Shown in pieces: positions 1 to 44,669 of a DNA stretch of 56,477 nucleotides. The position numbers were made by a program, and so were the translations under genes. Below the pieces are notes generated by a model that had not been told where the DNA came from, ran no database searches, and saw only the letters and a program-made list of their open reading frames with translations. How positions within the stretch are numbered: position 1 is the first letter of the stretch; each line of letters starts with the position of its first letter. Source of the DNA: Eubacteriales bacterium (lineage in GTDB: Bacteria > Bacillota > Clostridia > Oscillospirales > SIG627); NCBI GenBank assembly GCA_045531285.1, contig JAZSDT010000043.1:1-56477 (forward strand), written 5' to 3'.

Positions 1-106
1 CCAGTATATAAAAAAGCGGAGAGCCTCCGCGGGCAATGCTCGCCTATCGTAATCTTTGAGTATACCCATACAAAGCAAAACGGCGAGGTTGGTTTAATGC
101 AATTTA
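1..106 (+). repeat. intergenic structured repeat, copy 1 (sense = A-run/hairpin end first)
   Basis: AAAAAAGCGGAGAGCCTCCGCgGGCAATGCTCGCCTATC...AAACGGCGAGGTTgGTTTAATGCAATTT. Tandem with copy 2 at a 106-nt period. The array may continue left of the window. Confidence 0.9.
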
Positions 107-224
107 CCAGTATATAAAAAAGCGGAGAGCCTCCGCAGGCAATGCTCGCCTATCCCCATCTTTGAGTATACCCATACAAAGCAAAACGGCGAGGTTGCTC
201 CAATGCAATTTTTGGTATATAAAA
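107..224 (+). repeat. intergenic structured repeat, copy 2
   Basis: Near-identical to copy 1. Differences cluster after CTATC and in GGTT/GCTC. Confidence 0.9.
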
Positions 225-5511: not shown

Positions 5512-6702
5512 ATGAAAATAACAGTGCTTGGCGATATGATGTGTGAGCCTCCTATATTGAAGGCGTCAAAAACAAAAGACGGCTATGACTTTGGCGGAGT
5601 ATTTGCTAAAATCAAGCCTATGTTTGACGAATCTGATTACGTCATAACTAATCTTGAATTTCCCATGGCAGGCGAGGAGGCAGGATATACCGACAGATTC
5701 TATGCTTTCAATGCTCCCGATTCCTACGCAACAGCCGTAAAGGAGGCAGGAGTTGACCTTGTTTCCACAGTGAACAATCACACCTTTGACAGGGGTGCCA
5801 AGGGTATGCTTCGCACAATTGAGGTTCTTGACCGTGTAGGTCTTGCACATACAGGCACATTTCCCCTTGGCAAGAGGGAGGAAGCGTATTATTTTGAGCT
5901 TGACGGCGTTAAGTTCGCTCTTGTTGCATATACTTATACCACAAACAAGGGTGTATATGGAGAGGATGCAAAATACCTAGAGTGTGTAAACTATCTCAAG
6001 CCTTTGAATATGAGGACCTATCTCCCCGAGGTATCCGCAAAAATGAAGACATGGGTAGATAAGCGCTTTCCCAAAATGAAGGAGGAGCACAGAGCAATAA
6101 TAAAAATGGCTGTAGGGTTGCCCAATACCATCGAAAGAGCCGACGATTATATTAACGAAGAGGAATCAGCACCCTACATTGCTCAATTTACCGAGGATAT
6201 TAAAAAGGCAAAGGAAAAGGCAGATATAGTTATTTGCTATCCTCACGTCGGCGGTCAGTTCAACCCCGTCCCCGGAAAGTTTTCCGAATATGTGGTAGCT
6301 CAGGCACTCAAGGCGGGAGCTGATACGGTTTTGGCAGGTCATTCCCATATGGTACAACCTGTAAAATACATTGACGGCGTGCTTTGCGCATATTCCCTGG
6401 GCAATTTCAGTATGTCACCGAACTCCACTATTATTGTAAAGAAAAATCTTCCCGAATACAGTCTTGCAATTCATCTTTACGTTGAATCGGGCAGAATTTC
6501 CAACGCTACGTTTTCAATACTTAAGGCGGTGGAAAAGAGAGGCAAACAGCTTGTGACCTACCCTGTGGACGTGCTTTACAGCGAGCTTAAGAGCGAGAAA
6601 GAAAAGGAGCTTTTGAAAAAGCACGTTGCCCAGGTGTACAAATATGCAACGGGCAAGGAGCTTACCGACGGCATACAAAAGGAATACGACTTAAAGGCAT
6701 AA
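5512..6702 (+). CDS. CapA-family metallophosphatase-like protein (poly-gamma-glutamate capsule synthesis family)
   Basis: The N-terminus ITVLGDMM...DYVITNLEFP...VDLVSTVNNHTFD is typical of the PGA_cap/CapA family. Confidence 0.7.
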   Translation: MKITVLGDMMCEPPILKASKTKDGYDFGGVFAKIKPMFDESDYVITNLEFPMAGEEAGYTDRFYAFNAPDSYATAVKEAGVDLVSTVNNHTFDRGAKGMLRTIEVLDRVGLAHTGTFPLGKREEAYYFELDGVKFALVAYTYTTNKGVYGEDAKYLECVNYLKPLNMRTYLPEVSAKMKTWVDKRFPKMKEEHRAIIKMAVGLPNTIERADDYINEEESAPYIAQFTEDIKKAKEKADIVICYPHVGGQFNPVPGKFSEYVVAQALKAGADTVLAGHSHMVQPVKYIDGVLCAYSLGNFSMSPNSTIIVKKNLPEYSLAIHLYVESGRISNATFSILKAVEKRGKQLVTYPVDVLYSELKSEKEKELLKKHVAQVYKYATGKELTDGIQKEYDLKA

Positions 6703-6800
6703 AAAGCGGAGAGCCTTTGCTGGCAATTCTCGCCTATCGGTATGAATCAATAACTAATTGCAGAAAAACAGCGAGGTTGTGTTAAACACAATTTACGAGC
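6700..6800 (+). repeat. intergenic structured repeat, copy 3 (degenerate)
   Basis: AAAAAGCGGAGAGCCTTTGCTGGCAATTCTCGCCTATC...AACAGCGAGGTTGTGTTAAAC. It begins at the capA-like TAA stop. Confidence 0.75.
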
Positions 6801-6840
6801 AAAAAGCTTCCGTGTGCATTTTGCACACGGAAGCTTTTTA
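6801..6840. terminator. bidirectional intrinsic terminator between capA-like and putP
   Basis: AAGCTTCCGTGTGCA-ttt-TGCACACGGAAGCTT, flanked by an A-run and a T-run. Confidence 0.85.
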
Positions 6841-6885
6841 TATATTAGGAAATTGCATTAAACTAATCTCGCCGCCTTTTATGTG
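6838..6885 (-). repeat. intergenic structured repeat, copy 4 (half element)
   Basis: The plus strand reads TATATATTAGGAAATTGCATTAAACTAATCTCGCCGCC. Only the GGAAATTGCATT/CTCGCC arm is present. Confidence 0.7.
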
Positions 6886-6900
6886 ATAGTTGAAAACTGA

Positions 6901-9725: not shown

Positions 9726-9768
9726 GAGCTAAGATATCTTTTAAAAATTATCTTAGCTCATTCTTTAT
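9726..9768. terminator. bidirectional intrinsic terminator
   Basis: GAGCTAAGATA...TATCTTAGCTC, with AAAAA upstream and a T-rich tail. Confidence 0.7.
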
Positions 9769-9855
9769 ATGCTAGGAAATTGCATTAAATCAACCTCGCC
9801 GTTTTACGTTGTCAAAGGTTACAATAGGCGAGGATTGCCAGCGGCTCCATTCGGC
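9766..9855 (-). repeat. intergenic structured repeat, copy 5
   Basis: TATATGCTAGGAAATTGCATTAAATCAACCTCGCCG...ATAGGCGAGGATTGCCAGCGGCTCC. The hairpin end is degenerate and abuts the TAG stop of the oxidoreductase gene. Confidence 0.85.
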
Positions 9856-10886
9856 TATAACTTTCCCCCGTTGGTTTTGTATATCGCTTCTATTATCTGT
9901 TGGTCAATAATAGTATTTCTTCCGTTTACAGGGGGTACGGTATCACTTATTACGGCGTTGGAGAATGCCTCTATTTCCTTGGTGTACATATTGCCAAAGT
10001 CAACCTTTATTTCCACAGGCTTCGCGGGTGCTCTGTTCTGCAGTGCATCATAGCCTGCTCCGTCATCACAGGTGAGCACCTTGACAGTGCCTCCCTCCAC
10101 TTGACCCAGAGTGCCTACTGCAACAATACTTCCCTTTGTTCCGTAGAATTCCATAGGACAGCTTGCCGCATCGTCGGGAATGTTGAAGTTTGCATCTACC
10201 ATTGCAAGTGCACCGTTATTCATCTTTATCACAACGGCAGATGAATCATCTGCTGTATATCCGAAGGTTGCATTGTGAGCAAATCCTGTGCACTCAACGG
10301 GAGTGAGTCCAGAAAGATATATGAGAAGGTCAATACAGTGGATTCCCATATCCATAAGAGCACCGCCTCCCGACAGCTTTACGTCCTGTCTCCAGCAGTT
10401 TTCCATTTTGGGATACCAGCAGGTAAACTGAGCACGCATGGAAACTATTTCGCCGATAGTACCCTTTTCAATGAGCTCCTTTATTGCCTGATGATAGGCG
10501 TGGAAGCGCATCATAAAGCCTGCACCCAGCTTTACGCCTTCCTTTTCGCAGGCGTTGATTATCTCTTCTGTGTCTGCCAGAGTAATTCCCATGGGCTTTT
10601 CCAGAAGGATATGCTTTTTTGCTTTCGCCGCCGCCAAAGCCTGTTCCTTGTGGGCGAACACGGGAGACGCAATATAAACAGCCTCCACCTCGTCAAGTGC
10701 CAGAAGGTCCTCGTATTTGTCAAAGGCATATTTGGCACCGTATTTTTCTTTTACACCTTCTGCAGCCTGAAGATTTGCATCCATTACTGCATAAAGCTCA
10801 GCGTTTTCAGCAAGCATCATACCGGGAATAGTTCTGCGGTTGGCAATACCGCCGCATCCGATTACACCCCATTTTACTTTTTTCAT
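9855..10886 (-). CDS. Gfo/Idh/MocA family oxidoreductase
   Basis: KWGVIGCGGIANRR Rossmann N-terminus and an EKP motif (LLEKPMG). Its start overlaps the upstream ABC ATPase stop. Confidence 0.85.
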   Translation of the reverse strand: MKKVKWGVIGCGGIANRRTIPGMMLAENAELYAVMDANLQAAEGVKEKYGAKYAFDKYEDLLALDEVEAVYIASPVFAHKEQALAAAKAKKHILLEKPMGITLADTEEIINACEKEGVKLGAGFMMRFHAYHQAIKELIEKGTIGEIVSMRAQFTCWYPKMENCWRQDVKLSGGGALMDMGIHCIDLLIYLSGLTPVECTGFAHNATFGYTADDSSAVVIKMNNGALAMVDANFNIPDDAASCPMEFYGTKGSIVAVGTLGQVEGGTVKVLTCDDGAGYDALQNRAPAKPVEIKVDFGNMYTKEIEAFSNAVISDTVPPVNGRNTIIDQQIIEAIYKTNGGKL

Positions 10887-14425: not shown

Positions 14426-14516
14426 TTTACCTGCTCCTGTTGTGTAGAATTAGTATTGCTTGTAAAATAATGATATCATAACTTGATAAAGATGTCAATG
14501 ATTTTGGCTTTTGCAG

Positions 14517-15830: not shown

Positions 15831-17825
15831 ATGAAAAGATTTAGTGCTTTTTTACTTGCCATGATTATGAGCTTTTCGGCTTTGGCGCTGTGCATAAGTG
15901 CCACCGAGTTTCCTTTTAAGGACGTGGAGGAAGGCGAGTGGTATTACAGCAGTGTCAAGGAGGCATACGAGCTGGGACTTGTTAACGGAAAGGATAGTGT
16001 GGACACCTACAAGCCCAACGAAAATATGAGCTATGCCGAGGCAATCAAGCTTGCGGCTTGTATGCATCAGCGTTACACTACAGGCTCGGTTACACTTACA
16101 AACGGAGAGCCTTGGTATCAGAACTACGTTGATTATTGCAGAACAAACGGTATTATTTCAAAGGAATACTCCTATACCGCTTCGGCAACAAGAGTGGGAT
16201 ATATGGAGATATTTGCAAAGGCGCTTCCCGACGAGGCGTTGGAGGAGATAAATATTATTCCTAAAAATTCGATTCTCGACGTACCTTCGGATATGGCAGG
16301 TGCTGAGGGTATCTATAAGCTTTACAAGGCGGGAATACTTGCAGGCGCTGACGGATTGCATAATTGTAATCCCAATTCCAATATAAAGAGAAGCGAGGTT
16401 GCCGCTATACTTTCACGAATGATGGATGCTACAAAAAGAGTAAAATTCGACACTATAGCAACTGCACCTATAGAGGAGGTTCCTGTGGAAACGTTCACAT
16501 TACCGGAGAAAAATCAGTGGGAAAATTACACCTTTGGCAAGGAAGGTGACAAGACCGTTGCAGAACAGCGTCGGGAAATACTTGACGGTATGAACCTTGC
16601 AATCAATACTCAGACCAAATGGAAGGAAGTTCCAAGCTTCAATCCCACAGCCGAAAAGTACAATCACATTAAGGCTATCACCTACGACGGACTCGAGTAT
16701 AAGGGTGAAAAGACAAAGGTATTTGCTTTTGTGGGCTTCCCTGAGGGAGCTTCGGAGGATTCTCCCGTGCCTGCCGTTGTACTTGTGCACGGCGGCGGAG
16801 GACATGCTTACTATAAGTGGGTAGAGTTATGGAATCAGCGCGGATATGCGGCAATTGCCATGGATACTACAGGCTTCTTCCCCTCGGCAGTTGACGTAGG
16901 TGAGACCGAAGGCAAAGACCCTAAAGGCGAATGGGTATACGGACTTACAGAGGATTTTGCCGAGGAAGGCTACGTAAATGCACCTAACCGTCCTTATCAC
17001 ACCTCTTATACCGAGGTACAGGAGCAGTGGGCATACCACGGTCTCAGCCAGGTTATTCTTGCGGGAAATATTCTTCGCCAGGACAAGAGAGTTGATGCCA
17101 ACAATATTGGAATCACAGGTATTTCATGGGGTGGCACAATGGTTGCCCAGGTAATCGGATATGACAATCGCTTCTCCTTTGCAATACCCATTTACGGCAC
17201 AGCATATCTTGGAGACGAGATGCGTTCCTTCGCAGATTTTGCAAACCCTTACGTCGATGCACTGTGGGCGGCTGAAAGAAATCTTGACAACGCAAAAATG
17301 CCGATACTTTGGTTTGCATACAACGACGACAACAACTTTGGAATCAACTCCTACGTTGACTCCTTTAAGCATACACAGGGCTTTAACACTAAGACCTGTT
17401 TGACCATGCTTGGCAGCTGGGGACATTCACACGGCAGTGCATGGAGTAAGGAACACAGCTATTTATTTGCAGATTGGGTAACCTACGGCGAAAACGGACT
17501 TGTGAATTTTGCAACACAGCCAAAGGGACGAGAGGTAAACTGCCGTATCAGAATACCTGAAAACGTAACGGGCTCGGTAGTTGCATACGTACATTACATC
17601 ACTTCTCCCATGACCTATAGCAAGCACAACAAATTCGGCTGGGGCAATTACGTATTTTTAGACCAGAAGTGGCAGAAAACACGTTCATGGCTGAAGGTTG
17701 ACAAAACCACGGGAACTGTAAGCGGTACTATCCCCGAAGAAGCAAAGGGATATTACATAGAGCTGCAGTACAAGGTTTCAAAAAAGGTTTGTCAGACCAG
17801 CTCCGTATACGTTCCACTTGACTGA
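15831..17825 (+). CDS. secreted SLH-domain protein fused to an alpha/beta-hydrolase (acetyl-esterase/dienelactone-hydrolase-like)
   Basis: The start was moved to ATG 15831 (MKRFSAFLLAMIM signal peptide). Two SLH-like segments are present. VLVHGGGGH and the GISWGG nucleophile elbow mark the hydrolase domain. Confidence 0.65.
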   Translation: MKRFSAFLLAMIMSFSALALCISATEFPFKDVEEGEWYYSSVKEAYELGLVNGKDSVDTYKPNENMSYAEAIKLAACMHQRYTTGSVTLTNGEPWYQNYVDYCRTNGIISKEYSYTASATRVGYMEIFAKALPDEALEEINIIPKNSILDVPSDMAGAEGIYKLYKAGILAGADGLHNCNPNSNIKRSEVAAILSRMMDATKRVKFDTIATAPIEEVPVETFTLPEKNQWENYTFGKEGDKTVAEQRREILDGMNLAINTQTKWKEVPSFNPTAEKYNHIKAITYDGLEYKGEKTKVFAFVGFPEGASEDSPVPAVVLVHGGGGHAYYKWVELWNQRGYAAIAMDTTGFFPSAVDVGETEGKDPKGEWVYGLTEDFAEEGYVNAPNRPYHTSYTEVQEQWAYHGLSQVILAGNILRQDKRVDANNIGITGISWGGTMVAQVIGYDNRFSFAIPIYGTAYLGDEMRSFADFANPYVDALWAAERNLDNAKMPILWFAYNDDNNFGINSYVDSFKHTQGFNTKTCLTMLGSWGHSHGSAWSKEHSYLFADWVTYGENGLVNFATQPKGREVNCRIRIPENVTGSVVAYVHYITSPMTYSKHNKFGWGNYVFLDQKWQKTRSWLKVDKTTGTVSGTIPEEAKGYYIELQYKVSKKVCQTSSVYVPLD

Positions 17826-17841
17826 TCTTAAGACAAAAAGA

Positions 17842-17885
17842 AGCCGTTTAAAAACTCTAACAGAGTTTTTAAACGGCTTTTTTAT
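17842..17885 (+). terminator. intrinsic terminator of the SLH-esterase gene
   Basis: 17-bp stem AGCCGTTTAAAAACTCT/AGAGTTTTTAAACGGCT followed by a T-run. Confidence 0.85.
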
Positions 17886-17990
17886 ATACTAGGAAATTGT
17901 ATTAAATTAACCTCGCCGTTTTACCTTGTTGGAGTATACTCAAAGGTTACGATAGGCGAGCATTGCCAGCGGAGGCTCTCCGCTTATGTA
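17883..17990 (-). repeat. intergenic structured repeat, copy 6
   Basis: TATATACTAGGAAATTGTATTAAATTAACCTCGCCG...GATAGGCGAGCATTGCCAGCGGAGGCTCTCCGC. Confidence 0.9.
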
Positions 17991-18009
17991 TATTCCAACT
18001 ACATTTTAT

Positions 18010-18038
18010 TAATTTTCCATTGAAAAACCTACTTTTTT
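18010..18038 (+). promoter_or_regulatory. sigma-A promoter of the DUF4838-like gene
   Basis: TTGAAA (18010-18015), 17-nt spacer, TACAAT (18033-18038). Confidence 0.55.
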
Positions 18039-18068
18039 GTTATACAATTATAAAAAAGGAGGGATAAA

Positions 18069-19991
18069 ATGCTTAAGATAAATAAAATTACTTCAAATCA
18101 CACAATAGATTTTGCTTCAGAAGAGCTTAAAAAGTACCTCAGAATGATGATGCCTATGTGCGGAGAAATAGAAATAAACTATGCTCCCGATGCAAAGGAC
18201 GGCTTCAGGCTTGGAGTTATGTCGGATTTCGGACTTGACACCTCCGAGGCTGACGACCTGTATCTTGACGATATTATTCACATTGATTGCGACACGGAGG
18301 GCGGAATTATTGCGGGTAGCAATCCGCGAAGCGTACTTCTTGCCGTGTACAGATATCTGACGGAAAACGGATGCCGTTGGCTTTTTCCCGGTATTGACGG
18401 CGAGATGATTCCCGTAAAGGATATACAGTGCGTTAAGTATCACAAAATGGCATCCTGCCGTTACAGAGGACAGTGCAACGAGGGTGCAGAGGCACAGCAT
18501 CTTATGATGGATGCCATTGACTTCACTCCAAAGATAGGTATGAATATCTTTATGATGGAGTTTGACAATCCAAGGGTATACTATGACTCCTATTACAAGC
18601 ACACTCAGAACAGTACCCGAGAGCCTGAGCCTGTTACCAAACAGACTGTTTTGCAGTGGAAAAGACAGTGTGAGGCAGAGATATCAAAAAGAGGCTTACA
18701 GTTTCACGATATGGGACACGGTTGGACAGTGGCACCCTTTGGAATAGATTCGTCTGAAGCGTGGAACAGCCAAGAGCCTGAAAAGGTACCCGAAAAAGTT
18801 CGCAAATATATTGCTCAAACCGATGGTAAGCGCGATTTGTTTAAGGGTATATCTATCAATACCAACTTCTGTATGTCAAATTCCGAGGCAAGAGGAATCG
18901 TTGCAAGGTATATTGCCGACTACGCTCAGCGCGCAACAAACGTTGATTATCTTCACGTGTGGCTTGCGGACGGCTCGAACAATCATTGCGAATGTGACGA
19001 ATGCCGTAAGAAAATACCGTCCGATTGGTATATGATGCTGATGAACGATATCGACCAAGAGCTGACAGCCAGAGGACTTAATACAAGAATAGTGTTTATT
19101 TGCTACGTTGACACGACTTGGGCACCGGAAACGGTGACTGTTAAAAACCCCGACCGTTTTTCACTTTTGCTTGCCGCTATATCAAGAGATTATACCGAGC
19201 ACGTAAAAATGAATCTGGATACCTCGAAGATTGAGCTCAAGGAATTCAGTCTTAATAAAAACAAGCTTCCTGGAAGCGTAAACGAGTATATTGCTCATGC
19301 TAAGAGATGGCAGGAAAAATGCAAGGTAAAAACCTTTGTATACGAATACCACTACTGGAAGGCGCAGTACAGAGACCTTGGAGTTATTGATGCCGCGAGA
19401 ATAATATGCAACGATATTAAGGGGTATAAATCAAATGGCTGCGACGGCGTTGTTGAGGACGGCTCCCAGAGAAGCTATTTCCCCAACGGATTTTCATTCT
19501 ACACCTATGCTTCAACCTTGTTTGACACCTCTGTTGATTTTGACGAGCTGAAAAAAGACTATTTCAGCCACGCATACGGTGAGGATTGGGAAAGGGTAGT
19601 GGAGTTTTTCACCAATCTTGGTAAGCTTGCCGATTACAGATATTTCAACGGAAAGATGTCTGAGGAAAGCGGCAGACCGTATTACGCACCAAGCCTTACG
19701 GAAAATTTCAAAAAAGCAATTGCTCTCATTGAGGGCTTTAAAGACTTTGTAAAGGAGCATAGGGCAGCCCCTTACAGAGCACAGTCGGTTGCGTATAAGC
19801 TTCTGGGGTATTACCTTGAATACGCTGTGCTTGTGCTCAATGCCGCAATAGACAAGGCTGAGGGCAAAGACGAAAGTGCGCATCAGCGATTTGTGGAGCT
19901 AAAGGAAACCATTGGCAAATACGAGCCTGAAATAGAGCTGTGGTATGACCAATATATGATGCACGTATCACTTTGGCATCTGTTTGGATAA
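18069..19991 (+). CDS. DUF4838-like (GH20-related) putative glycoside hydrolase
   Basis: 640 aa with a GGAGGG RBS. IIAGSNPRSVLLAVYRYLTENGCRWLFPG and HVWLADGSNNHCECDEC are typical of DUF4838 proteins. Confidence 0.6.
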   Translation: MLKINKITSNHTIDFASEELKKYLRMMMPMCGEIEINYAPDAKDGFRLGVMSDFGLDTSEADDLYLDDIIHIDCDTEGGIIAGSNPRSVLLAVYRYLTENGCRWLFPGIDGEMIPVKDIQCVKYHKMASCRYRGQCNEGAEAQHLMMDAIDFTPKIGMNIFMMEFDNPRVYYDSYYKHTQNSTREPEPVTKQTVLQWKRQCEAEISKRGLQFHDMGHGWTVAPFGIDSSEAWNSQEPEKVPEKVRKYIAQTDGKRDLFKGISINTNFCMSNSEARGIVARYIADYAQRATNVDYLHVWLADGSNNHCECDECRKKIPSDWYMMLMNDIDQELTARGLNTRIVFICYVDTTWAPETVTVKNPDRFSLLLAAISRDYTEHVKMNLDTSKIELKEFSLNKNKLPGSVNEYIAHAKRWQEKCKVKTFVYEYHYWKAQYRDLGVIDAARIICNDIKGYKSNGCDGVVEDGSQRSYFPNGFSFYTYASTLFDTSVDFDELKKDYFSHAYGEDWERVVEFFTNLGKLADYRYFNGKMSEESGRPYYAPSLTENFKKAIALIEGFKDFVKEHRAAPYRAQSVAYKLLGYYLEYAVLVLNAAIDKAEGKDESAHQRFVELKETIGKYEPEIELWYDQYMMHVSLWHLFG

Positions 19992-20020
19992 ACGGCAAGG
20001 CTTTTTAAACGTAATTAAAA

Positions 20021-20050
20021 GGAAAGAGAATTTGTTCTCTTTCCTTTTTA
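20021..20050. terminator. bidirectional terminator between the DUF4838-like and LysR genes
   Basis: GGAAAGAGAA-tttg-TTCTCTTTCC, flanked by A and T runs. Confidence 0.8.
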
Positions 20051-20072
20051 CATTATATGGAATTTTCGCCAA

Positions 20073-20891
20073 CTACGTCGATAGGTGGGCAAAAAATTTG
20101 GAAAACTCTGTAATCAAGCGTGCCTTGGGCGAATGCTTTTTGTAGCTCAGACCCAGTGTACGTGTCAGCGGCGGCTGAATGGGAAGTATTTCCACTCCGT
20201 CGCTTTCGACTACCGACAGCCGTGGGAGAATTGCAACTCCCATTTCTGCCTTTACCATTTGAATGATTGAGCTGTCGTCGTGTGCATTTATTACCGTAGT
20301 GCCGTTAAAATTGTTTTTATTTACCAATTGCATTACGGTATATTCATCAGAAACTATAAAGGTTTCGGCGTATTTTTTGTCAAATCGGAATTCCTTATCA
20401 AAGGTGTGACCCTTTGGAAAAACCGCTTGGTATGGGTCGGTCATTACCTCTAACCAGACGTATTCTTTGGATTGCAAGCACGTGCCGAACAGTACGTCAA
20501 TATCCTTGTCAAGCAGCTGCGAGAGTGAGTTGACTACCGTGATATCCACCTGTACGTCGGGGTGTGCCTTGCGGTAGCTTTTTATTATACTTGGCAACAG
20601 GTATTTCGATACGCTGGAATAAGTACCCACTGACAAGCGCTTTTCGTTTTTTGCAAGGGATTGTATATAGTTCTTTGTTTCGCATATTTTTTGCAGTGCT
20701 TTCACTACCTCAACGTTGTCTGCCTCTATTCCGCTGTGAGTACGTTTTATGAATTTTATTCCGATTTCAGATTCCAGCGAAGTGGCTATATGAGAAAGTG
20801 CCGAGGGGGTATAAGAGTATTTTTCCGCCGCTTTTGAAAACGAACCCATTTTCAGTGCACAAAGTATAACTTCTATTTTGTTTATATCCAT
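20073..20891 (-). CDS. LysR-family transcriptional regulator
   Basis: The start was moved to ATG 20891 (GAGG RBS). The HTH region is FSKAAEKYSYTPSALSHIATSLE. It is divergent from the DMT transporter gene. Confidence 0.85.
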   Translation of the reverse strand: MDINKIEVILCALKMGSFSKAAEKYSYTPSALSHIATSLESEIGIKFIKRTHSGIEADNVEVVKALQKICETKNYIQSLAKNEKRLSVGTYSSVSKYLLPSIIKSYRKAHPDVQVDITVVNSLSQLLDKDIDVLFGTCLQSKEYVWLEVMTDPYQAVFPKGHTFDKEFRFDKKYAETFIVSDEYTVMQLVNKNNFNGTTVINAHDDSSIIQMVKAEMGVAILPRLSVVESDGVEILPIQPPLTRTLGLSYKKHSPKARLITEFSKFFAHLST

Positions 20892-20903
20892 AATTGCCTC
20901 GTG

Positions 20904-20932
20904 TTGAAAATTTTTCACATCCATATTATAAA
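20904..20932 (+). promoter_or_regulatory. sigma-A promoter of the DMT transporter gene, overlapping the LysR start region
   Basis: TTGAAA (20904-20909), 17-nt spacer, TATAAA (20927-20932). Confidence 0.5.
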
Positions 20933-20999
20933 GCTTATCTTCACAATTGTCAAGAAAAGTGATATTATATGTAACAGTGATTTTTTCGGAGGCGATATA

Positions 21000-21869
21000 A
21001 TGAAGAATAAAAAGCTTGCTTCGTATTTAGGACTGTTTTTCGTGGTGTTTGTATGGGGTCTGGCTCCGCTGGTTACCTACGAAATTCAAAAATATTACTC
21101 CCCAACCTTCAAAACGGCTTTTTCCGAGCTGATACTTATTATTGTATATTTGATGATGTCGGTGAAGCATTTTAAGGAATTCAGCTTCGATTATATCAAG
21201 GTAGGTGTTCCCACAGGTTTTTTTCTTGCACTTGCCAATATAAGTCAAAAAATCGGTCTTTTGTACACTACTCCCGCAAAATACGCATTTCTTGAGAACC
21301 TTTCTTGCGTTGCTGTTCCAATACTTATGTTTTTTCTGGTAAAGAAAAAAATAAAGTTCTTCACTGTTATTTCTTCCGTGCTGTGCCTTGCCGGTGTTTT
21401 TGTGCTCAACGGGGTCTCTTTTGACGGAGGCTGGGGGATAGGAGAGCTTTTGTGTGCTTTGTCGGGCATACTTTATGGCGTCAATATTGCCGGAACGGGT
21501 GCGTTTGCAAAGAAGTTTTACGTGCCGATGTATCTTGCGGTACAAAGTGTTGTGGGACTTATTTCCGGACTGTCCATTTCCTTTGTCCTCGATGCAACGG
21601 GAATAGAAAAAATAGTGTTCCCGATAACTCCAAAGCTTATCGGTGTCCTTATATTGATAGCGGTAGTGTCCTCCGCTTTGTGTTGGACTATAAGAACCAA
21701 TGCAATGAAGTACATTTCTCCTTCTACCGTTGCCGTTATAATGCCGTTTTCTGCCGTCATAACTACAGTGCTGTCCATATTGTGGGGTCTGGATTCGTTG
21801 ACTGTAGGTATAGCTGTCGGCGGTATTATGGTTGTTGCAGCTATAATAATTTCATCCTTTGATGATTAG
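21000..21869 (+). CDS. DMT-superfamily (EamA-like) transporter
   Basis: The start was moved to ATG 21000 (GGAGG RBS). About 10 TM segments. The track's N-terminal extension overlaps the LysR promoter and start. Confidence 0.8.
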   Translation: MKNKKLASYLGLFFVVFVWGLAPLVTYEIQKYYSPTFKTAFSELILIIVYLMMSVKHFKEFSFDYIKVGVPTGFFLALANISQKIGLLYTTPAKYAFLENLSCVAVPILMFFLVKKKIKFFTVISSVLCLAGVFVLNGVSFDGGWGIGELLCALSGILYGVNIAGTGAFAKKFYVPMYLAVQSVVGLISGLSISFVLDATGIEKIVFPITPKLIGVLILIAVVSSALCWTIRTNAMKYISPSTVAVIMPFSAVITTVLSILWGLDSLTVGIAVGGIMVVAAIIISSFDD

Positions 21870-21930
21870 CGGCTAGCAGCCGAGGCAAATCTCGCCTATC
21901 ACAACTGTATGCAATTTTAGACTATAACGA
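21867..21930 (+). repeat. intergenic structured repeat, copy 7 (short form)
   Basis: taGCGGCTAGCAGCCGaGGCAAATCTCGCCTATC...TGCAATTTTAGACTATA. It lacks the GGCGAGG arm and starts in the DMT gene stop codon. Confidence 0.7.
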
Positions 21931-21938
21931 ACAAAAAA

Positions 21939-21970
21939 ACGCAACGGATAAACCGTTGCGTTTTATTTCT
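21939..21970. terminator. bidirectional terminator between the DMT gene and tsf
   Basis: CGCAACGG-ataaa-CCGTTGCG, with A7 upstream and a T-run downstream. Confidence 0.75.
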
Positions 21971-22076
21971 TTATAGGAAATTTTTCGATTATTACGCCCT
22001 CGCCGTTTCACTTTTTTGAACATATGCAAAGTTTAGGATAGGCGAGCATTGCCAGCGGCTGCTAGCCGCTTTTTTT
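21971..22076 (-). repeat. intergenic structured repeat, copy 8 (arm subtype b)
   Basis: TATAGGAAATTTTTCGATTATTACGCCCTCGCCG...GATAGGCGAGCATTGCCAGCGGCTGCTAGCCGCTTTTTTT. Confidence 0.9.
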
Positions 22077-22181
22077 GTATACTAGGAAATTGCATTAAAT
22101 CAACCTCGCCGTTTCACTTTTTTGAACGTATGCAAAGCTTTGGATAGGCGAGCATTGCCAGCGGCTGCTAGCCGCTTTTTT
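22077..22181 (-). repeat. intergenic structured repeat, copy 9 (arm subtype a)
   Basis: TATACTAGGAAATTGCATTAAATCAACCTCGCCG...GATAGGCGAGCATTGCCAGCGGCTGCTAGCCGCTTTTTT. It ends 7 nt from the tsf stop. Confidence 0.9.
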
Positions 22182-22188
22182 GGAATTA

Positions 22189-23115
22189 TTAGTTGCCTGC
22201 GAGCTGCTTAGCAATCTCTTCTGCGAAGTTTTCTTCTCTCTTTTCGAGACCTTCGCCCTTTTCGTACATAAGGAATGCTTCTACCTTAACGTCAGCGCCA
22301 AGCTCCTTAGCTACGCTTGCAAGGTACTGTTCAACAGTGAACTTTTCTTCCTTAACGTACTCCTGAAGGAGAAGACAGTTGGTAGAATAGTACTTGCCAA
22401 TCTTACCCATTGCCATCTTTTCGATGATGTTGTCGGGCTTGTTAGCATTCTTTTCGTCGTTTTTGATCTGAGCCATGATGATTTCCATCTCAGCCTTGAT
22501 AACGTCAGCAGGAACTGAATCCTTGTCAAGATATGAGGGCTTCATAGCTGCAATCTGGAGAGCTACGTTCTTAGCAGCTTCCTTGAATTCAGCCTTGTCA
22601 GCAGCAGCGCTGTCTGCCATCTTAACCATAACACCGATAGTACCCTTACCATGAATGTAAGAAGCAATTACACCGTCGATTGTAACGAATCTTCTTATGT
22701 TGATGTTTTCACCGATCTCAAATACCTTGTTCTTGAGAGCTGTCTCAACGTTTTGCTCTGCATCGAAGGGAAGAGCAAGAAGAGCTGCAACGTCAGCGGG
22801 CTTCTTGTCAAGGATTATCTTAAGAAGATCCTTAACGAAGGTTCCGAATACTGCGTTTGAAGCAGCAAAGTCTGTTTCGATGTTTACTTCGATCATAGCG
22901 GCAGTCTTTGTAGCCTCGTCGTACATAATGTCAACGATACCCTCTGCTGCAATTCTTGATGACTTCTTGTCAGCAACTGCAAGTCCCTTCTCACGAAGGA
23001 TCTTTATTGCTTCTTCTTCGTTTCCGTCAGCCTCTGTGAGTGCCTTCTTGCACTCCATCATGCCAAGACCTGTCTTAGCTCTGAGGTCTGCAACCTGTTT
23101 AGCTGTAATAGGCAT
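22189..23115 (-). CDS. tsf: translation elongation factor Ts
   Basis: ITAKQVADLRAKTGLGMMECKKAL UBA-like N-terminus. Lies downstream of rpsB. Confidence 0.95.
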   Translation of the reverse strand: MPITAKQVADLRAKTGLGMMECKKALTEADGNEEEAIKILREKGLAVADKKSSRIAAEGIVDIMYDEATKTAAMIEVNIETDFAASNAVFGTFVKDLLKIILDKKPADVAALLALPFDAEQNVETALKNKVFEIGENINIRRFVTIDGVIASYIHGKGTIGVMVKMADSAAADKAEFKEAAKNVALQIAAMKPSYLDKDSVPADVIKAEMEIIMAQIKNDEKNANKPDNIIEKMAMGKIGKYYSTNCLLLQEYVKEEKFTVEQYLASVAKELGADVKVEAFLMYEKGEGLEKREENFAEEIAKQLAGN

Positions 23116-35291: not shown

Positions 35292-35330
35292 GTGGCAAGA
35301 GTCAGACTCTTGCCACAGTTTTTTGCTTTT
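35292..35330. terminator. bidirectional terminator between ThuA and the asparaginase gene
   Basis: GTGGCAAGAG-tcaga-CTCTTGCCAC, with A7 upstream and TTTTTTGCTTTTT downstream. Confidence 0.8.
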
Positions 35331-35432
35331 TAGGAAATTTCTAGATTATTACGCCTTCGCCGTTTCACTTTTTTGAACATATGCAAAGCTTTGGATAGGC
35401 GAGATTTGCCAGAGGCTGCTAGCCGCTTTTTT
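35331..35432 (-). repeat. intergenic structured repeat, copy 10 (subtype b)
   Basis: TAGGAAATTTCTAGATTATTACGCCTTCGCCG...GATAGGCGAGATTTGCCAGAGGCTGCTAGCCGCTTTTTT. There is one uncompensated stem change. Confidence 0.9.
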
Positions 35433-41139: not shown

Positions 41140-41400
41140 TTACTTTAAAAATTAAAAATGCCCTTCGCCCCCAAATATGGGACGAAAGGCAACTTCCGCG
41201 ATACCACCCAAATTGACTTTGAAAACAAAGTCCTCTCTTGTCACATTCACGCAGTGTAACGTGCGGTTCTAATCACCCTGTGGGCTTTCTTCCGCCGGCT
41301 CCGAAGCGTTTTTCCCATAAGACTTGCTGCCGTTCTCACACCTGCAACGACTCTCTTTGAGCAGTAACTTACGGTACTCTCTTCATCACAACCATTTTGA
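41140..41400 (-). promoter_or_regulatory. T-box riboswitch leader of the aspS-gatCAB operon
   Basis: On the minus strand I read a GA/K-turn (GUGAUGAAG), AGAGAGUA, an AG bulge (AAAGAGAG) and a distal loop (GCAGGUGUGAG). The T-box sequence AAUUUGGGUGGUAUCGCGG lies at plus 41196-41214. A terminator hairpin at 41160-41190 is followed by a U-run. Confidence 0.85.
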
Positions 41401-42683: not shown

Positions 42684-43672
42684 TATCCGAATACTCCTGC
42701 GAATTTAAGCAAAAAGGACGCAAGTCCTACTGAAAGTGCCGAAAAGACGGTGGTAAATACCACAAGCTGTCCCGCAAGCACTACGTCACTTTTCATTTCC
42801 TGAGCCATTGGCACACTGGATACAGCAACGGGAGTTGCAAAAAGCGCAACAAGAGATGCAAAGTGAGCACCTGTAAAGCTGTCCTTGAAAAGTATGTAAG
42901 CCACTCCCAAGCCAAGCAAGGGCACTACAAATACTCTGAGCGCCGTACCGTAGATTATCTCCTTTTTAAGTGAGGCTACAGCAGAAAATTCAAACTGTGC
43001 ACCCAGCACCAGAAGAGACAGAGGTGTTGCCGTGTCGGACAAATATCCCAGTGCTTTGTACAAGGGGGTTACGTCTCTCAGGCGGAATTCAATCCCCACC
43101 TTGACGAACACCACGCGGATAGCAAGAGCAAGACAGCCTGCAAGGACGCTTAAGATCAAAGGATTGGTTATTATATTGTGCAGTACGTATTTAACGCTTG
43201 TTTTCTTTCCTTCCTTGGAGAAAATAGAAAGGCTTATAACAGCTAAGGTGTTGAATATAGGAATTGTAACCGCGGACAACAGTGCCGCCACGGCTACGCC
43301 CTCCTGACCGAAAAGAGACTGAGCAAGAGGTATTCCGATAAGTGCGAAATTGGAACGAAAGGACGCCTGAAGCAAAGCTCCTCGGCTGCCTCCGTTTTTT
43401 GTTATTCTCATAACCAGAGGAATACTTACGGCAAAAATAAACAGCACCACAGCTACGGCATATACAATGTATCCGAAGCTGACCTGTCCGATATCTTCAA
43501 TTTTATATACGTTTAAGAAAAGCATTGCCGGCAAACAAATTCTGAAAACTATTGTGTTTGCCTTTTTTGAAAATTCAGGGGGCATAAAGCCCTTCTTTTT
43601 GAGGAAATACCCCAACACTACCATAAGCACTATTGGCATAACGGCATTTATTGCAAAGATTAATGATTCCAC
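42683..43672 (-). CDS. AEC-family (auxin efflux carrier-like) permease
   Basis: About 10 TM segments with N-terminus IFAINAVMPIVLMVVLGYFLKKKGF typical of the AEC/MleP family. GTG 43672 is preferred over GTG 43681 on RBS (GAAGG) spacing. Its stop overlaps the Card1-like ATG by 1 nt. Confidence 0.75.
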   Translation of the reverse strand: MESLIFAINAVMPIVLMVVLGYFLKKKGFMPPEFSKKANTIVFRICLPAMLFLNVYKIEDIGQVSFGYIVYAVAVVLFIFAVSIPLVMRITKNGGSRGALLQASFRSNFALIGIPLAQSLFGQEGVAVAALLSAVTIPIFNTLAVISLSIFSKEGKKTSVKYVLHNIITNPLILSVLAGCLALAIRVVFVKVGIEFRLRDVTPLYKALGYLSDTATPLSLLVLGAQFEFSAVASLKKEIIYGTALRVFVVPLLGLGVAYILFKDSFTGAHFASLVALFATPVAVSSVPMAQEMKSDVVLAGQLVVFTTVFSALSVGLASFLLKFAGVFG

Positions 43673-43690
43673 TCGGTGCACCTTCTTTTT

Positions 43691-43799
43691 ACTCTATAGG
43701 AAATTTCTCGATTATTACGCCCTCGCCGTTTTTCATTGCAGGGATATATTTAAAGGTTGCGATAGGCGAGCTTTGCCAGCGGCTGCTAGCCGCTTTTTT
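43691..43799 (-). repeat. intergenic structured repeat, copy 11 (subtype b)
   Basis: CTCTATAGGAAATTTCTCGATTATTACGCCCTCGCCG...GATAGGCGAGCTTTGCCAGCGGCTGCTAGCCGCTTTTTT. Confidence 0.9.
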
Positions 43800-43907
43800 A
43801 TATATGCTAGGAAATTGCATTAAATCAACCTCGCCGTTTTGCATTGTCGGGATATATTCAAAGGTTGGGATAGGCGAGCATTGCCAGCGGTCGCTGACCG
43901 CTTTTTT
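43800..43907 (-). repeat. intergenic structured repeat, copy 12 (subtype a)
   Basis: TATATGCTAGGAAATTGCATTAAATCAACCTCGCCG...GATAGGCGAGCATTGCCAGCGGTCGCTGACCGCTTTTTT. It carries a compensated stem variant. Confidence 0.9.
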
Positions 43908-43933
43908 ACTCTATAGGAAATATTTTATCACGC
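43908..43933 (-). repeat. intergenic structured repeat, copy 13 (5' fragment)
   Basis: ACTCTATAGGAAATATTTTATCAC. Only the first ~25 nt of a subtype b unit are present. Confidence 0.6.
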
Positions 43934-43950
43934 TTTTATTTAAATGTCAA

Positions 43951-44622
43951 TTACCCTTGAGTTACTCTTCCGTCGCCCTTTAAATCTATTGGCTTGCCAA
44001 GGTATTTGGGCTTTGGCTTGAAAACACACCACAGAAAATCCTTGTTTCTTGCTACAAGCTCTCTTGCGTCACGTCGTAGCTGTCCGTAATAGCTGTGAAG
44101 GTCGGATGCGACACCGTACGCCTCAAGCCCAAGAGCGTGAGCTATATAAAGGGCGCGGTACAAATGGTATTCTTGCGTTACGATTATTGCTTTTTTTGCA
44201 CCGAAAACCTCTTTTAGTCTATAGATACTGTCATAGGTGCAAAAGCCTGCGTGGTCCATAAAGACACGTTGGACGGGAACACCTTTATCTATTGCAAAAT
44301 CACGCATGGTATTGACCTCGTCGTACTCCTTGGTGCCGTGGTCTCCGCTCATCAGCAGTGTGTCGCTGACTCCCTTTTTCCAAAGGTCAACTCCGGTTGT
44401 CAGCCTGTCCTCCAGCATTCCGCTGGGTGTTCCGTCGGGTCTTACAAGACATCCGAGCACAATAATGCAGTCTACGTCAGTAAGTTGTTGGGATTGTTCC
44501 GGTGTAATTATTCTGTTTTTTACAGCTGTCTTAACGTATGCGTTTACTCCCAGTGCGTAAATGAGAGTAACGGCACAAAGACATAGTATGGCTAAAAGTA
44601 ATTTTTTGATTCTTTTTTTCAT
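43951..44622 (-). CDS. sanA: SanA/YdcF-family (DUF218) membrane-anchored protein
   Basis: N-terminal TM segment. DCIIVLGCLV...DGTPSGMLEDRL...LLMSGDHGTKEYDEVNTM is typical of SanA. Confidence 0.75.
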   Translation of the reverse strand: MKKRIKKLLLAILCLCAVTLIYALGVNAYVKTAVKNRIITPEQSQQLTDVDCIIVLGCLVRPDGTPSGMLEDRLTTGVDLWKKGVSDTLLMSGDHGTKEYDEVNTMRDFAIDKGVPVQRVFMDHAGFCTYDSIYRLKEVFGAKKAIIVTQEYHLYRALYIAHALGLEAYGVASDLHSYYGQLRRDARELVARNKDFLWCVFKPKPKYLGKPIDLKGDGRVTQG

Positions 44623-44635
44623 ATCCGCAATCTGT

Positions 44636-44669
44636 AAAACGGGGCTTTTGCTGTCAAAAGTCCCGTTTT
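44636..44669. terminator. terminator-like hairpin between the ltaS-like gene and sanA
   Basis: AAAACGGGGCTTTTG-ctgt-CAAAAGTCCCGTTTT, a 15-nt arm with one G-U pair. It lies only 14 nt upstream of the sanA ATG. Confidence 0.6.

Follow-up and report, generated by a model that had tools for sequence, protein, structure and literature searches.

A small interspersed repeat of uncultured ruminant-gut Oscillospiraceae that probably imitates its own target, the transcription terminator

Introduction

Small interspersed repeats that lack inverted ends, SPRITE and BOX among them, were first recognised decades ago, and to my knowledge how repeats of this type move is not understood. BOX, from S. pneumoniae, is modular, with the structure boxA-boxB(n)-boxC. 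MITEs, among them RUP (107 bp) and the Correia elements, are defined by their terminal inverted repeats. REPs are palindromes of 20-40 nt that typically come in inverted pairs and co-occur with a RAYT gene, and derivatives of IS200/IS605 (PATEs) carry similar hairpins at both ends and require a Y1 TnpA.

SPRITE, a small interspersed repeat of S. pneumoniae, is a stem-loop in which an 18-bp duplex is joined to a long U-rich tract; it is enriched 3' of coding sequences, has no similarity to IS inverted repeats and no known mobiliser, and is limited to close relatives (PMC3049150). The ends of BOX pair as inverted repeats, and BOX has been linked to ISSpn2 (PMC3049150). Group IIC introns typically lie just downstream of terminator motifs, an inverted repeat and then T's (Toor et al. 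2006, PMC1702495).

The window considered here, the whole stretch of 56,477 nt that was analysed, carries part of a repeat family that is real, non-coding and uncatalogued. Its unit is about 107 nt, and there are about 370 copies in one uncultured ruminant-gut Oscillospiraceae genome. In general character the family looks like selfish mobile DNA of a familiar kind. A preliminary description of the window had thought of REP/BIME-like or MITE-like elements or of a small RNA in preference to plain drift, and repeat or mobile DNA, not drift, is borne out. I propose, with somewhat more belief than doubt, that the family is specific to one genus and consists of small mobile DNA elements, non-coding and non-autonomous, which imitate their own target. 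On the best reading the element is strand-specific and resembles pneumococcal SPRITE, with a modularity like that of BOX. It is an unusually clean case: the insertion point is exact (the T-tract of an intrinsic terminator), the orientation is strict, and the 3' end recreates the target.

Results

Copies in the window

The preliminary description had counted at least 15 copies or fragments in the window, intergenic and in several places tandem. A profile built from window copies gives 13 nhmmer matches at those positions, which with two arm fragments come to about 15 copies. All lie between real genes, and the ORFs that overlap them are spurious, made of repeat sequence. The copies and two of the adjoining host terminators are as follows (E is the nhmmer value).

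9-117, minus strand: full unit, type-1 arm, hairpin GCGGAG/CTCCGC; first member of a tandem pair at the contig start (E 5.5e-30, model positions 2-109)
115-221, minus strand: full unit, second member of that pair, 93% identical to the first (repeat family D6); adjoins a host terminator at about 232-262 (E 4.2e-27)
6701-6805, minus strand: diverged full unit, hairpin GCAAAG/CTCCGC partly broken (E 3.7e-19)
6834-6892, plus strand: internally deleted unit, arm and CTCGCCG fused to CCTTTT at a GCCG microhomology (repeat comparison, family D5); the ortholog in sister species G008 is a full unit (C15:39214-39320)
9765-9859, plus strand: unit with shortened core and degenerate terminal hairpin, directly 3' of a host terminator (E 5.9e-21)
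17841-17879, unstranded: host two-way terminator hairpin; unit 17882-17989 is inserted at its T-tract (terminator scan, 18 pairs)
17882-17989, plus strand: solo full unit, type-1 arm, hairpin GCGGAG/CTCCGC (E 6.1e-29; hairpin 17968-17984 terminator-like)
21865-21905, minus strand: 3' fragment of an oppositely oriented unit, covering the stop codon of gene 20901-21869 (E 5.9e-6, model positions 65-106)
21936-21964, unstranded: host two-way terminator common to convergent genes, kept in species G012, where the site is empty (terminator scan; alignment with G012)
21969-22075, plus strand: full unit, type-2 arm (GGAAATTTTTCGATTATTACGCC), first member of a tandem pair (E 1.3e-27; hairpin 22054-22070 terminator-like)
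22076-22181, plus strand: full unit, type-1 arm, second member of that pair; its T-tract ends 8 nt from the stop codon of tsf on the opposite strand (E 5.8e-30; hairpin 22160-22176 terminator-like)
35327-35432, plus strand: solo full unit, type-2 arm, 3' of a host terminator (E 9.5e-25)
43693-43800, plus strand: full unit, type-2 arm, hairpin GCGGCT/AGCCGC, first member of a pair (E 3.3e-26)
43801-43907, plus strand: full unit, type-1 arm, hairpin GCGGTC/GACCGC (E 1.8e-29)
43908-43933, plus strand: arm-only fragment (sequence comparison)
44688-44734, plus strand: 3' part of an old degenerate unit, hairpin GTGGCT/AGCCAC, without T-tract (E 1.6e-8)
44742-44835, plus strand: degenerate unit, aberrant arm, hairpin GTGGCT/AGCCAC, without T-tract (E 4.4e-20)

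The arm-only fragment at 43908-43933, taken with the T-tract before it, is a copy of about 19-20 nt (TTTTTACTCTATAGGAAAT) found upstream of the same array, and its ACTCTATAGGAAAT variant has no other occurrence in the genome.

Architecture of the unit

Read on the T-tract strand, the unit (about 106-108 nt) consists of a variable 5' arm, CCTCGCCGTTTT, a variable core, GATAGGCGAGnATTGCC, a hairpin of 7 bp and T6; the consensus as first described is correct. The hairpin is G+C-rich with the loop GCT, and the T6 after it often continues AT. Two arm subtypes had been recognised. Both exist, together with a third, longer 5' module, and the three are interchangeable, with TAGGAAAT common to all. An internal module, about 93 nt long and bounded by copies of CCTCGCCGTTTTTT, is present one to four times. 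Arms and cores vary, whereas CCTCGCCG and GATAGGCGAG are about 99% conserved across species. The unit has no terminal inverted repeats, and the inner helix CTCGCC/GGCGAG, which encloses about 42 nt, is unrelated to the 3' hairpin.

For the T-tract strand RNAalifold gives a consensus of -19.2 kcal/mol, and for the opposite strand one of -4.6. The folding energy of the whole unit is no better than that of shuffled sequence (z -0.5 to -2), and there is only a single strong hairpin. An outward promoter seemed by eye to lie in the arm (TTGATT-N16/17-TATATA-like); a consensus scan gave no promoter-like site, and type-2 arms have no -35. An integron attC-like reading of the central inverted pair was also set aside, the R-box consensus being a misfit by eye and the units not linked to cassettes.

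The terminal hairpin

Among 234 near-full copies the hairpin reads GCGGCT/AGCCGC (63 copies), GCGGTC/GACCGC (53), GCGGAG/CTCCGC (36), GCGGAT/ATCCGC (8) or GTGGCT/AGCCAC (3), so the four pairing versions claimed for the window are real. Other species add GCGGCG/CGCCGC, GTGGCG/CGCCAC, GCGACG/CGTCGC and GTGGTG/CACCAC. The loop, described as an invariant AGC, is nearly so here (GCT on the T-tract strand) and is GCC in two other species.

In an alignment of 64 sequences from 12 species, 97.7% of the cells in the terminal helix are paired, against 90.7% when columns are shuffled (none of 500 shuffles equals the observed value), and pairing falls to 30-49% when the partners are slid. Both sides have changed at 6 of the 7 pairs, and a second set, of 150 sequences, gives the same picture. 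Covariation had been read as selection on a folded strand, which is right for the terminal hairpin but for nothing beyond it. The second element of that argument, CTCGCC/GGCGAG, is indeed a conserved inverted pair, but with 1 double change in the 64 sequences it is invariant and does not covary. To judge from these alignments, selection evidently maintains the pairing of the terminal hairpin within one strand.

Placement in the genome

The 369 nhmmer matches fall at 264 loci and make up 1.44% of the genome's DNA. Although about 89% of the genome consists of long ORFs, 329 of the 369 are intergenic. Where both neighbouring genes are called, 48% of loci lie in convergent-gene gaps, compared with 13% of all gaps, and the 5' neighbour is oriented into the element at 151 of 215 loci. 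Directly 3' of a host terminator, and in the same orientation as that terminator, are 77% of the loci. The 50 nt upstream fold at -15.3 kcal/mol and those downstream at -6.1; flanks at -10 kcal/mol or lower number 77% upstream and 16% downstream, and the final bases preceding the element are 69-92% T.

The element's own 3' end has the sequence features of an intrinsic terminator: a G+C-rich stem, a short loop and a T-tract. The mean hairpin energy is -8.8 kcal/mol, and in 68% of full copies at least 5 T's fall within the next 8 nt. A terminator scan of 17700-22300 scored three element hairpins, those marked above as terminator-like (7 pairs, 5 of them G-C, a loop of 3 and a T tail). Inserted copies probably terminate read-through transcription, as these features predict. 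A search of RNA runs found none that contains the array, and in runs retrieved through tsf that gene came from other organisms. Neither the terminator-like character of the hairpin, which a T-tract follows, nor the siting directly 3' of host terminators is part of the preliminary description.

Filled and empty sites

Another repeat of the same genome carries the element in some of its copies and lacks it in others. Seven copies of this host repeat are empty and read ATATCCTTTTTT followed directly by ATTGTTGAAAACC; three are filled and read TTTTTT, then a stretch from ATATACCAGG to GACCGCTTTTTT, then ATTGTTGAAAACC, with one unit in C37 and C168 and two units in C33. Sites that do not otherwise differ either have or lack whole units, the junction falling exactly between TTTTTT and AT. 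Species differ in the same manner. G012 has the tsf terminator without the 212-nt two-unit block of the window; the window is itself empty at 14426-14465, where G008 carries units, and the unit at 6834 is orthologous in both. Logan contigs (short and thin), pattern scans of metagenomes and exact-protein look-ups of the flanking genes yielded no empty allele from the same species, so the case for mobility rests on comparisons within the genome and between species.

Units of G012 always end on the right in T6+AT, and the host T-tract on their left varies from T5 to T7. TTTTTTAT stands on both flanks 3 times more often than in permuted pairs, and the filled and empty sites are compatible with a target duplication of 0 to 8 nt of T-tract. 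A few loci have long flanking duplications, 14-28 nt and variable in length, that start always at the T-tract; the one at locus C22 is a true duplication of 14 nt, in which a stop codon of the host and three codons are repeated. Such long duplications are not what a clean cut-and-join model would lead one to expect.

Arrays are double (75) or triple (15). Only 2 of these 90 multi-unit loci (out of 264 loci in total) mix strands, and in the rest the units follow one another head to tail every 106-108 nt, as in the tandem pairs that had been noticed in the window. Adjacent units are at least 95% identical in 10 of 55 pairs, compared with 0.9% of random pairs: arrays grow also by local duplication. 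Units decay through deletions at microhomologies (ATAGG, ATTGC, GCCG), and it is these that partial copies resemble, not 5' truncations.

Distribution

Within one genus 12 of 16 species carry the repeat, and 35 genomes from the 7 other genera gave no credible match; all the genomes are incomplete metagenome assemblies, 68-98% complete. Among sister species the number of copies runs from 0, as in the close relative G009, to several hundred. G011 and G012 have species-specific subfamilies whose near-identical copies indicate recent bursts.

Phage, plasmid and IMG/VR collections contain no match to the element, and an origin from phage, plasmid or virus was dropped. The search for a named RNA family that had been suggested ended similarly: a gathering run of Rfam 15 on the window returned only a T-box and an L10 leader, and permissive runs on the array and five other loci returned nothing relevant (the best array match had 24.8 bits against a threshold of 48). 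A ribozyme or satellite reading of the tandem units was dropped, Rfam giving no match to a ribozyme family, nor to a group II intron at E up to 10 on the array. Literature searches by sequence string and keyword turned up no description of the family.

Candidates for a parent or mobiliser

None of Y1_Tnp, RAYT-like, RVT_1 or Y2_Tnp (IS91) genes tracks the repeat across the 16 genomes of the genus; the assemblies being incomplete, the absence of a gene is weak evidence. As for an autonomous parent, no copy has its 5' and 3' parts split by coding DNA. Long multi-copy DNA was considered as a parent and rejected; it encodes paralogous enzymes or surface proteins, and large serine recombinases and one tyrosine recombinase in prophage-like contexts, and has no similarity to the repeat ends.

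Discussion

Comparison with described repeats

SPRITE and the present family have in common a stem-loop with a T/U-rich tract, strong enrichment just 3' of coding sequences, restriction to close relatives, and the lack both of IS-like inverted-repeat ends and of a known mobiliser. The features that would define a class of SPRITE-like terminator mimics (stem-loop and T-tract, gene 3' ends, no IS-like ends) are all found here, a likeness in form and placement. The differences are that here a 7-bp hairpin and T6 end a body of about 100 nt with conserved internal motifs, that insertion is exactly on host terminator T-tracts, and that there are head-to-tail arrays and compensatory hairpin variants. 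BOX is similar in its modularity, which here takes the form of interchangeable 5' arms and the iterated internal module, but this element has no terminal inverted repeats, another sequence and another target.

The MITE-like nature first suggested would suit the length of about 107 nt, the A+T-rich non-coding sequence, the high copy number, the intergenic position and the need for a trans-acting mobiliser. It fails on the lack of terminal inverted repeats and of any parent IS found, and on the orientation-specific insertion. The companion suggestion of REP/BIME fares no better. A hairpin under compensatory change, an intergenic position near gene ends and very high copy number are shared with REP, BIME and REPIN, but the units here are direct, about 107 nt long and head to tail, and a RAYT-like gene is found in 2 of 16 genomes, one of them repeat-free. 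PATEs likewise lack inverted terminal repeats and a clear duplication, insert in a strand-specific way 3' of a short motif and carry a subterminal hairpin near the right end; here there is only one such hairpin, and Y1 genes are uncorrelated with the repeat. Group IIC introns illustrate that hairpin plus T-tract can serve as a specific target of a mobile element, although the present element has no ribozyme and no intron-encoded protein and is about 20 times smaller.

A model of target mimicry

I propose that the element's 3' end copies its own target, hairpin and T-tract, and that each unit so inserted would present a fresh target for further insertion. A 3' end that recreates the target fits the occurrence of head-to-tail arrays with one shared T-tract. 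Insertion at gene ends would be harmless because the inserted copies would terminate read-through. Since every amplified subfamily keeps its pairing, the hairpin would be needed for propagation, and movement would be strand-specific, acting on a single strand. A trans-acting nuclease or strand-transferase of the HUH kind, cutting 3' of hairpin plus T-tract, is my best guess at the mobiliser, put forward tentatively; it may be encoded outside the incomplete assemblies. As routes of movement, template switching anchored in the T-tract is unlikely, and the copying of a terminator-ended RNA back into DNA rather more so. The mobile-element reading offers no explanation of the nearly invariant internal motifs.

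Alternative explanations

One alternative is that the repeat is REP/REPIN-like or derived from IS200/IS605, and that a Y1 HUH transposase (RAYT/TnpA) encoded in the genome recognises the GCGGnnGCTnnCCGC hairpin in single-stranded DNA. In favour are the orientation specificity of the element, its lack of inverted terminal repeats and of a clear target duplication, a subterminal hairpin whose pairing compensatory changes preserve, and, on the left flank, a short fixed motif that resembles the element's right end. There is also a weak bias in convergent gaps for the T-tract strand to be the leading-strand sequence (36:19, p = 0.03), confounded by gene orientation. G000 has two IS200-like genes, these too 3' of terminators, but their end hairpins are unrelated to the repeat, and the contigs of both have no repeat. 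G008 has a RAYT-like gene (NF047646, 64 bits, below the cut-off of 80), but the only other is in G013, which is repeat-free; a tblastn search of G000 gave none, nor did 13 other genomes yield one, all of them incomplete. Y1_Tnp (PF01797), present in 8 of 16 genomes, is unrelated to repeat load, being absent from repeat-rich G011, G015 and G006 and present in repeat-free G001 and G013. With no second similar hairpin at the 5' end, and with direct repeats in place of inverted REPIN pairs, I consider this explanation unlikely. It is very improbable that the units instead serve the host, as genes for small RNAs, cis-regulatory RNAs, or domesticated terminators or insulators. The strongly conserved internal motifs and covarying hairpin would suit such a role, as would placement at gene ends, where extra terminators could protect convergent genes, and G000 and G008 have both retained one unit, at an orthologous site, from before they split. 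Yet copy number falls to none among sister species, many copies are decayed or deleted, terminators are stacked up to three deep without evident purpose, the arms lack a promoter-like site, Rfam has no match, and the pattern of presence and absence fits insertion, not inheritance.

It is also conceivable that the unit spreads without a transposase, its end allowing it to be copied into terminators, either by template switching of the replisome or from RNA primed on the A-tract of a nicked terminator; this general idea I find quite doubtful. In the first form, a replisome or repair polymerase switches template at the TTTTTTAT that flanks every unit, copies the unit and returns, the hairpins perhaps favouring the stalling that would initiate the switch. 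The constant right end beside a variable left T-tract, the duplications of varied length that begin at the T-tract (most clearly at C22), the frequent local tandem duplication, the microhomology deletions, the internal module iterated between CCTCGCCGTTTTTT copies and the fact that searches found no transposase all agree with it. But I know of no precedent for template switching seeding hundreds of dispersed copies; the bursts of near-identical copies in G011 and G012 look efficient and catalysed, and the conservation of CCTCGCCG and GATAGGCGAG is left unaccounted for, so that little weight can be given to this form. In the second, a terminator-ended transcript would be reverse-transcribed much as a SINE is, with pairing between its U-tail and the A-tract of the nicked target. 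The unit ends 3' in hairpin plus T-tract and its target is a T-tract of like orientation, some duplications begin with that tract and vary in length, and G.T mismatches outnumber A.C by 43 to 19 on the T-tract strand of helix 1. This form is nevertheless improbable: reverse transcriptase genes are in 4 of 16 genomes and absent from G008, G011, G012 and G015, that of G000 is an ordinary group II intron protein, no promoter-like sequence lies upstream to set the sharp 5' end, constant right T6 with variable left T-tracts argues against simple target duplication, and partial copies do not look like 5' truncations. If true, the RNA-primed route would be a bacterial counterpart of SINE-type retroposition, and either route would explain why a mobiliser is absent in repeats of the terminator zone in Oscillospiraceae that lack terminal inverted repeats, and perhaps in SPRITE.

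Consequences

The occurrence of bursts in some species and of no copies in close relatives suggests that the mobiliser can be found, given closed genomes or isolates. At about 260 gene ends the family has probably added a terminator or a stack of them, a point of relevance to the prediction of operons and small RNAs in these uncultured ruminant-gut bacteria, and gene calling yields spurious ORFs from its copies. Of the 358 contig ends, 37 (about a tenth) fall in or beside a copy.

Copies of the repeat

The gap at 21867-22181 lies between two convergent genes and is laid out as follows.

ends 21869: membrane-protein gene, left neighbour of the gap
21865-21905, reverse orientation: 3' fragment of the repeat
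21936-21964: two-way terminator of the host
21969-22075: first of two head-to-tail units
22076-22181: second of the two units
ends 22189, strand opposite to the membrane-protein gene: tsf (elongation factor Ts)

The fragment runs over the stop and final codons of the gene at 20901-21869, whose reading frame may therefore end in repeat-derived sequence. A profile made from the window copies finds 13 matches in the window, and these, with two arm fragments, agree with the copies listed in the preliminary description. In the whole assembly of the genome containing the window (G000; 2.37 Mb, 179 contigs, 43% G+C) there are 369 matches, amounting to 1.44% of the DNA; 234 of them are almost complete, and their commonest length is 107 nt. 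The family is real, not a product of chance, and it is uncatalogued, though of a familiar bacterial kind. Rfam recognizes only two families in the window:

41175-41398, minus strand: T-box leader (117.7 bits)
54796-54954, plus strand: ribosomal protein L10 leader (71.5 bits)

The ORFs of 100-118 aa at 43467-43983 and 44561-44872 are made up of repeat units, artefacts that automatic callers could label hypothetical proteins.

Read on the strand that ends in T's, the unit has the consensus TTATATACTAGGAAATTGCATTAAATCAACCTCGCCGTTTTGCTTGTTTGGATATATTCAAAGGTTACGATAGGCGAGCATTGCCAGCGGCTGCTAGCCGCTTTTTT and no inverted ends. It is best conserved at CCTCGCCGTTTT, at GATAGGCGAG-ATTGCC and at the base of the terminal hairpin. 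The invariant motifs CCTCGCCG and GATAGGCGAG offer the most promising way to a binding partner. Two of the three versions of the 5' arm are short; the long one is a module of some 79-93 nt that has a hairpin of its own, GAGGGAGTGCTTTTTAGCAAAAAGCACTCCCTC, and can occur one to four times in a row between copies of CCTCGCCGTTTTTT:

G000: contig C7, 9238-9600; C8, 8638-8830; C113, 7716
G008 (another species of the genus): stretch L023, around C15, 51459-51700

Besides serving as an alternative arm, this module is found inserted or repeated, up to four times over, right after the unit's internal CCTCGCCGTTTTTT; its target seems, like that of the main unit, to be a T-tract behind a G+C-rich motif. 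Arm, core and hairpin types occur in all combinations, which makes the family modular and recombining. Most partial copies result from deletion at a microhomology (ATAGG, ATTGC or GCCG) or are interrupted by the long module.

Range was surveyed by DNA search and by a covariance model from a 64-sequence alignment, and the two agree that the family is present in 12 of 16 species of one genus, all represented by incomplete bins (68-98% complete). The model gave no credible match in 35 genomes from the seven other genera of the family (one was marginal, E 6e-4), and searches of phage, plasmid and IMG/VR collections did not find the element. Species differ in load, from no copies at all to over 200 candidates, the repeat-free ones including G001 and also G009, whose EF-Ts is 98% identical to that of G000. 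The assemblies that carry it are of uncultured Oscillospiraceae, Eubacteriales or Clostridia, and where an isolate name indicates a source, it points to the hindgut of goat, sheep, roe deer or water buffalo.

Which part of the unit is folded

RNAalifold predicts only two helices, both on the T-tract strand: CTCGCC/GGCGAG, with about 42 nt between its arms, and a terminal hairpin of 7 bp with a loop of 3 nt. The consensus folds to -19.2 kcal/mol on this strand, compared with -4.6 on the opposite one.

Pairing in a MAFFT alignment of 64 distinct units from 12 species
Cells pairing, given structure: 97.7%
Cells pairing after column shuffling: 90.7% (observed value reached in 0 of 500 shuffles)
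Cells pairing with partners slid: 30-49%
Terminal-helix pairs changed on both sides: 6 of 7

The double changes in the terminal helix are well populated (C-G in 42 units versus U-A in 16 at one pair, U-A in 38 versus G-C in 22 at another), and a set of 150 sequences gives the same picture, 95% paired against 79 +/- 0.7% when shuffled. The inner helix is nearly invariant, with a single double change, so covariation says nothing about it; nor is the folding of whole units better than that of shuffled sequences (z -0.5 to -2). The preliminary description's claim of covariation thus stands for the terminal hairpin and not for CTCGCC/GGCGAG. In the inner helix G.T mismatches exceed A.C by 43:19 on the T-tract strand (the terminal helix, at 25:17, shows no significant difference), a weak hint as to which strand folds that strand-biased mutation could also produce.

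Placement behind host terminators

Most copies are intergenic (329 of 369, in a genome of which about 89% lies in ORFs by a crude map). Two called neighbours are available for 215 loci. The flanking genes converge at 103 of these (convergent gaps are 13% of all gaps), and at 151 the gene on the 5' side is directed into the unit. Mean folding energy is -15.3 kcal/mol for the 50 nt upstream of a locus, -6.1 for those downstream and about -5 for shuffled sequence; a value of -10 kcal/mol or below is reached by 77% of upstream and 16% of downstream flanks. The bases just preceding the unit are 69-92% T. From this folding and these T's it follows that the unit starts on the T-tract of a host intrinsic terminator and has the same orientation as that terminator.

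The unit's 3' end is again a hairpin and a T-tract. Its hairpin averages -8.8 kcal/mol, and in 68% of copies the 8 nt behind it include 5 or more T; a terminator scan scores the hairpins at 17968-17984, 22054-22070 and 22160-22176. Loci are single (174), double (75) or triple (15), the units of an array being joined through a single T-tract.

Evidence of movement

Seven copies of another G000 repeat family read ..GGTGTTATATCCTTTTTT|ATTGTTGAAAACC.. and three read TTTTTT + ATATACCAGG...GACCGCTTTTTT + ATTGTTGAAAACC, with exactly one unit at that point in contigs C37 and C168 and two in C33. Related species also differ in occupancy. The tsf terminator is conserved in G012 without the 212-nt two-unit block. 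Over a 20-kb syntenic region of about 80% nucleotide identity, G008 has units where the window is empty (14426-14465), and the window unit at 6834-6892, orthologous to one in G008, has since had its middle deleted between two GCCG strings. Recent bursts are indicated by dozens of near-identical, species-specific variants in G011 and G012. Same-species empty alleles were not found in Logan contigs, metagenome scans or exact-protein look-ups; the metatranscriptomes retrieved through tsf held only the tsf of other organisms, and the array was in none of the RNA runs.

Because TTTTTTAT is present on both sides of the unit, the boundary may be placed anywhere inside it, and a target duplication of anywhere from 0 to 8 nt is compatible. 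In G012 the left T-tract ranges from T5 to T7 and the T6+AT on the right does not vary, which argues that the right tract belongs to the element. Longer flanking duplications occur at a minority of loci: a genuine one of 14 nt in C22, including a host stop codon and three codons, and repeats of about 18-28 nt of T-tract and arm, with locus-private variants, in C42, C99, C157 and the window array at 43693. Adjacent units are 84.5% identical, versus 72.2% for random pairs. Identity reaches 95% or more in 10 of 55 adjacent pairs, so local duplication also enlarges arrays.

A proposed model of propagation

The most economical reading is that the unit is a selfish, non-autonomous, strand-specific mobile element. 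I propose that it would target a hairpin followed by a T-tract(+AT) and end in the same motif. This reading would account together for the terminator-hugging placement, the fixed orientation, the tandem stacks and the tolerance of the host, to which a further terminator behind an existing one changes little. The hairpin is probably required for propagation, since every amplified subfamily keeps its pairing through different stem sequences, and what is recognized would probably be a folded single strand with conserved stem base, loop and T-tract.

Known systems offer partial likenesses. Nearest in function and placement is the pneumococcal SPRITE, a terminator-like repeat at 3' gene ends with neither IS-like ends nor a known mobiliser (PMC3049150); nearest in modularity is BOX. 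Terminator motifs are a bona fide mobile-element target for group IIC introns (PMC1702495), although the unit has no ribozyme. The REP/BIME-like or MITE-like membership first suggested fails: the unit lacks the inverted ends that define MITEs and the inverted pairs and RAYT that define REP/REPIN, as it does the paired hairpins and Y1 gene of IS200/IS605 derivatives.

What moves it? The likeliest single candidate, though at less than even odds, is an HUH-like or other single-strand nuclease/strand-transferase. No autonomous parent, with halves separated by a gene, was found. Y1 genes of the IS200 type occur in 8 of 16 genomes with no relation to repeat load, and G000's two are single-copy, with end hairpins unlike the unit's and no repeat nearby. 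IS91-type Y2 genes are absent. At 36 of 55 loci in convergent gaps the leading-strand sequence is that of the T-tract strand, a weak bias confounded by gene orientation. G008 has a RAYT-like gene directly behind rplJ-rplL (contig C20, L099:1324-1839, minus strand), encoding an HUH protein of 171 aa with the motif HIHLML whose best NCBIfam match, REP-associated tyrosine transposase, scores 64 bits, below the cut-off; it recurs only in G013, itself repeat-free, which speaks against a RAYT association. The corresponding place in G000 holds an isochorismatase-like gene (window 56001-56477). Template switching anchored in T-tracts is an unlikely alternative that would make use of the tracts at both ends. 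An RNA intermediate is less likely again: reverse transcriptases occur in only four genomes of the survey, and G000's is a group II intron protein. (It is a single reverse transcriptase/maturase of 598 aa with a C-terminal HNH-like domain, C70, L034:409-2205, minus strand.) The remaining probability goes to host-serving or other explanations. Multi-copy DNA and contig-end families yielded no mobiliser candidate; as the bins are incomplete, a mobiliser on an unbinned plasmid, phage or IS is possible. The exact target and the strong presence/absence contrasts between sister species make the mechanism tractable.

Other repeats

G000 has at least 15 copies of a second repeat, of about 130 nt, whose marker GAGTCTTATGTCGTGCGAACAC follows GGGTGTAAACCGAAAATGAAAGG:

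L011:8590-8800 (C33); also C14, C37, C38, C74, C85, C106, C123, C154 and C168

It has no Rfam match at E up to 0.01. Several copies, on the opposite strand, immediately precede a ribosome-binding site and start codon, which gives the repeat the look of a 5' leader common to many genes. Unrelated to the unit family is an element of about 270 bp, a classical MITE or IS end with true terminal inverted repeats (CTATAGCCGAAAAGAG...), which stands at six contig ends of G000:

C18 (left), C103, C136, C19, C48 and C74

Finally, AAGTCGGA...TCCGACTT bound a stretch of about 85 nt that is found repeatedly at contig ends:

G000: C115, C24, C30, C34 and C141 (start)
G012: L044:340-360

In one case it adjoins a prophage-like region with a large serine recombinase, and in G012 it interrupts a repeat unit within its arm; it may represent an attachment site or a further small element.
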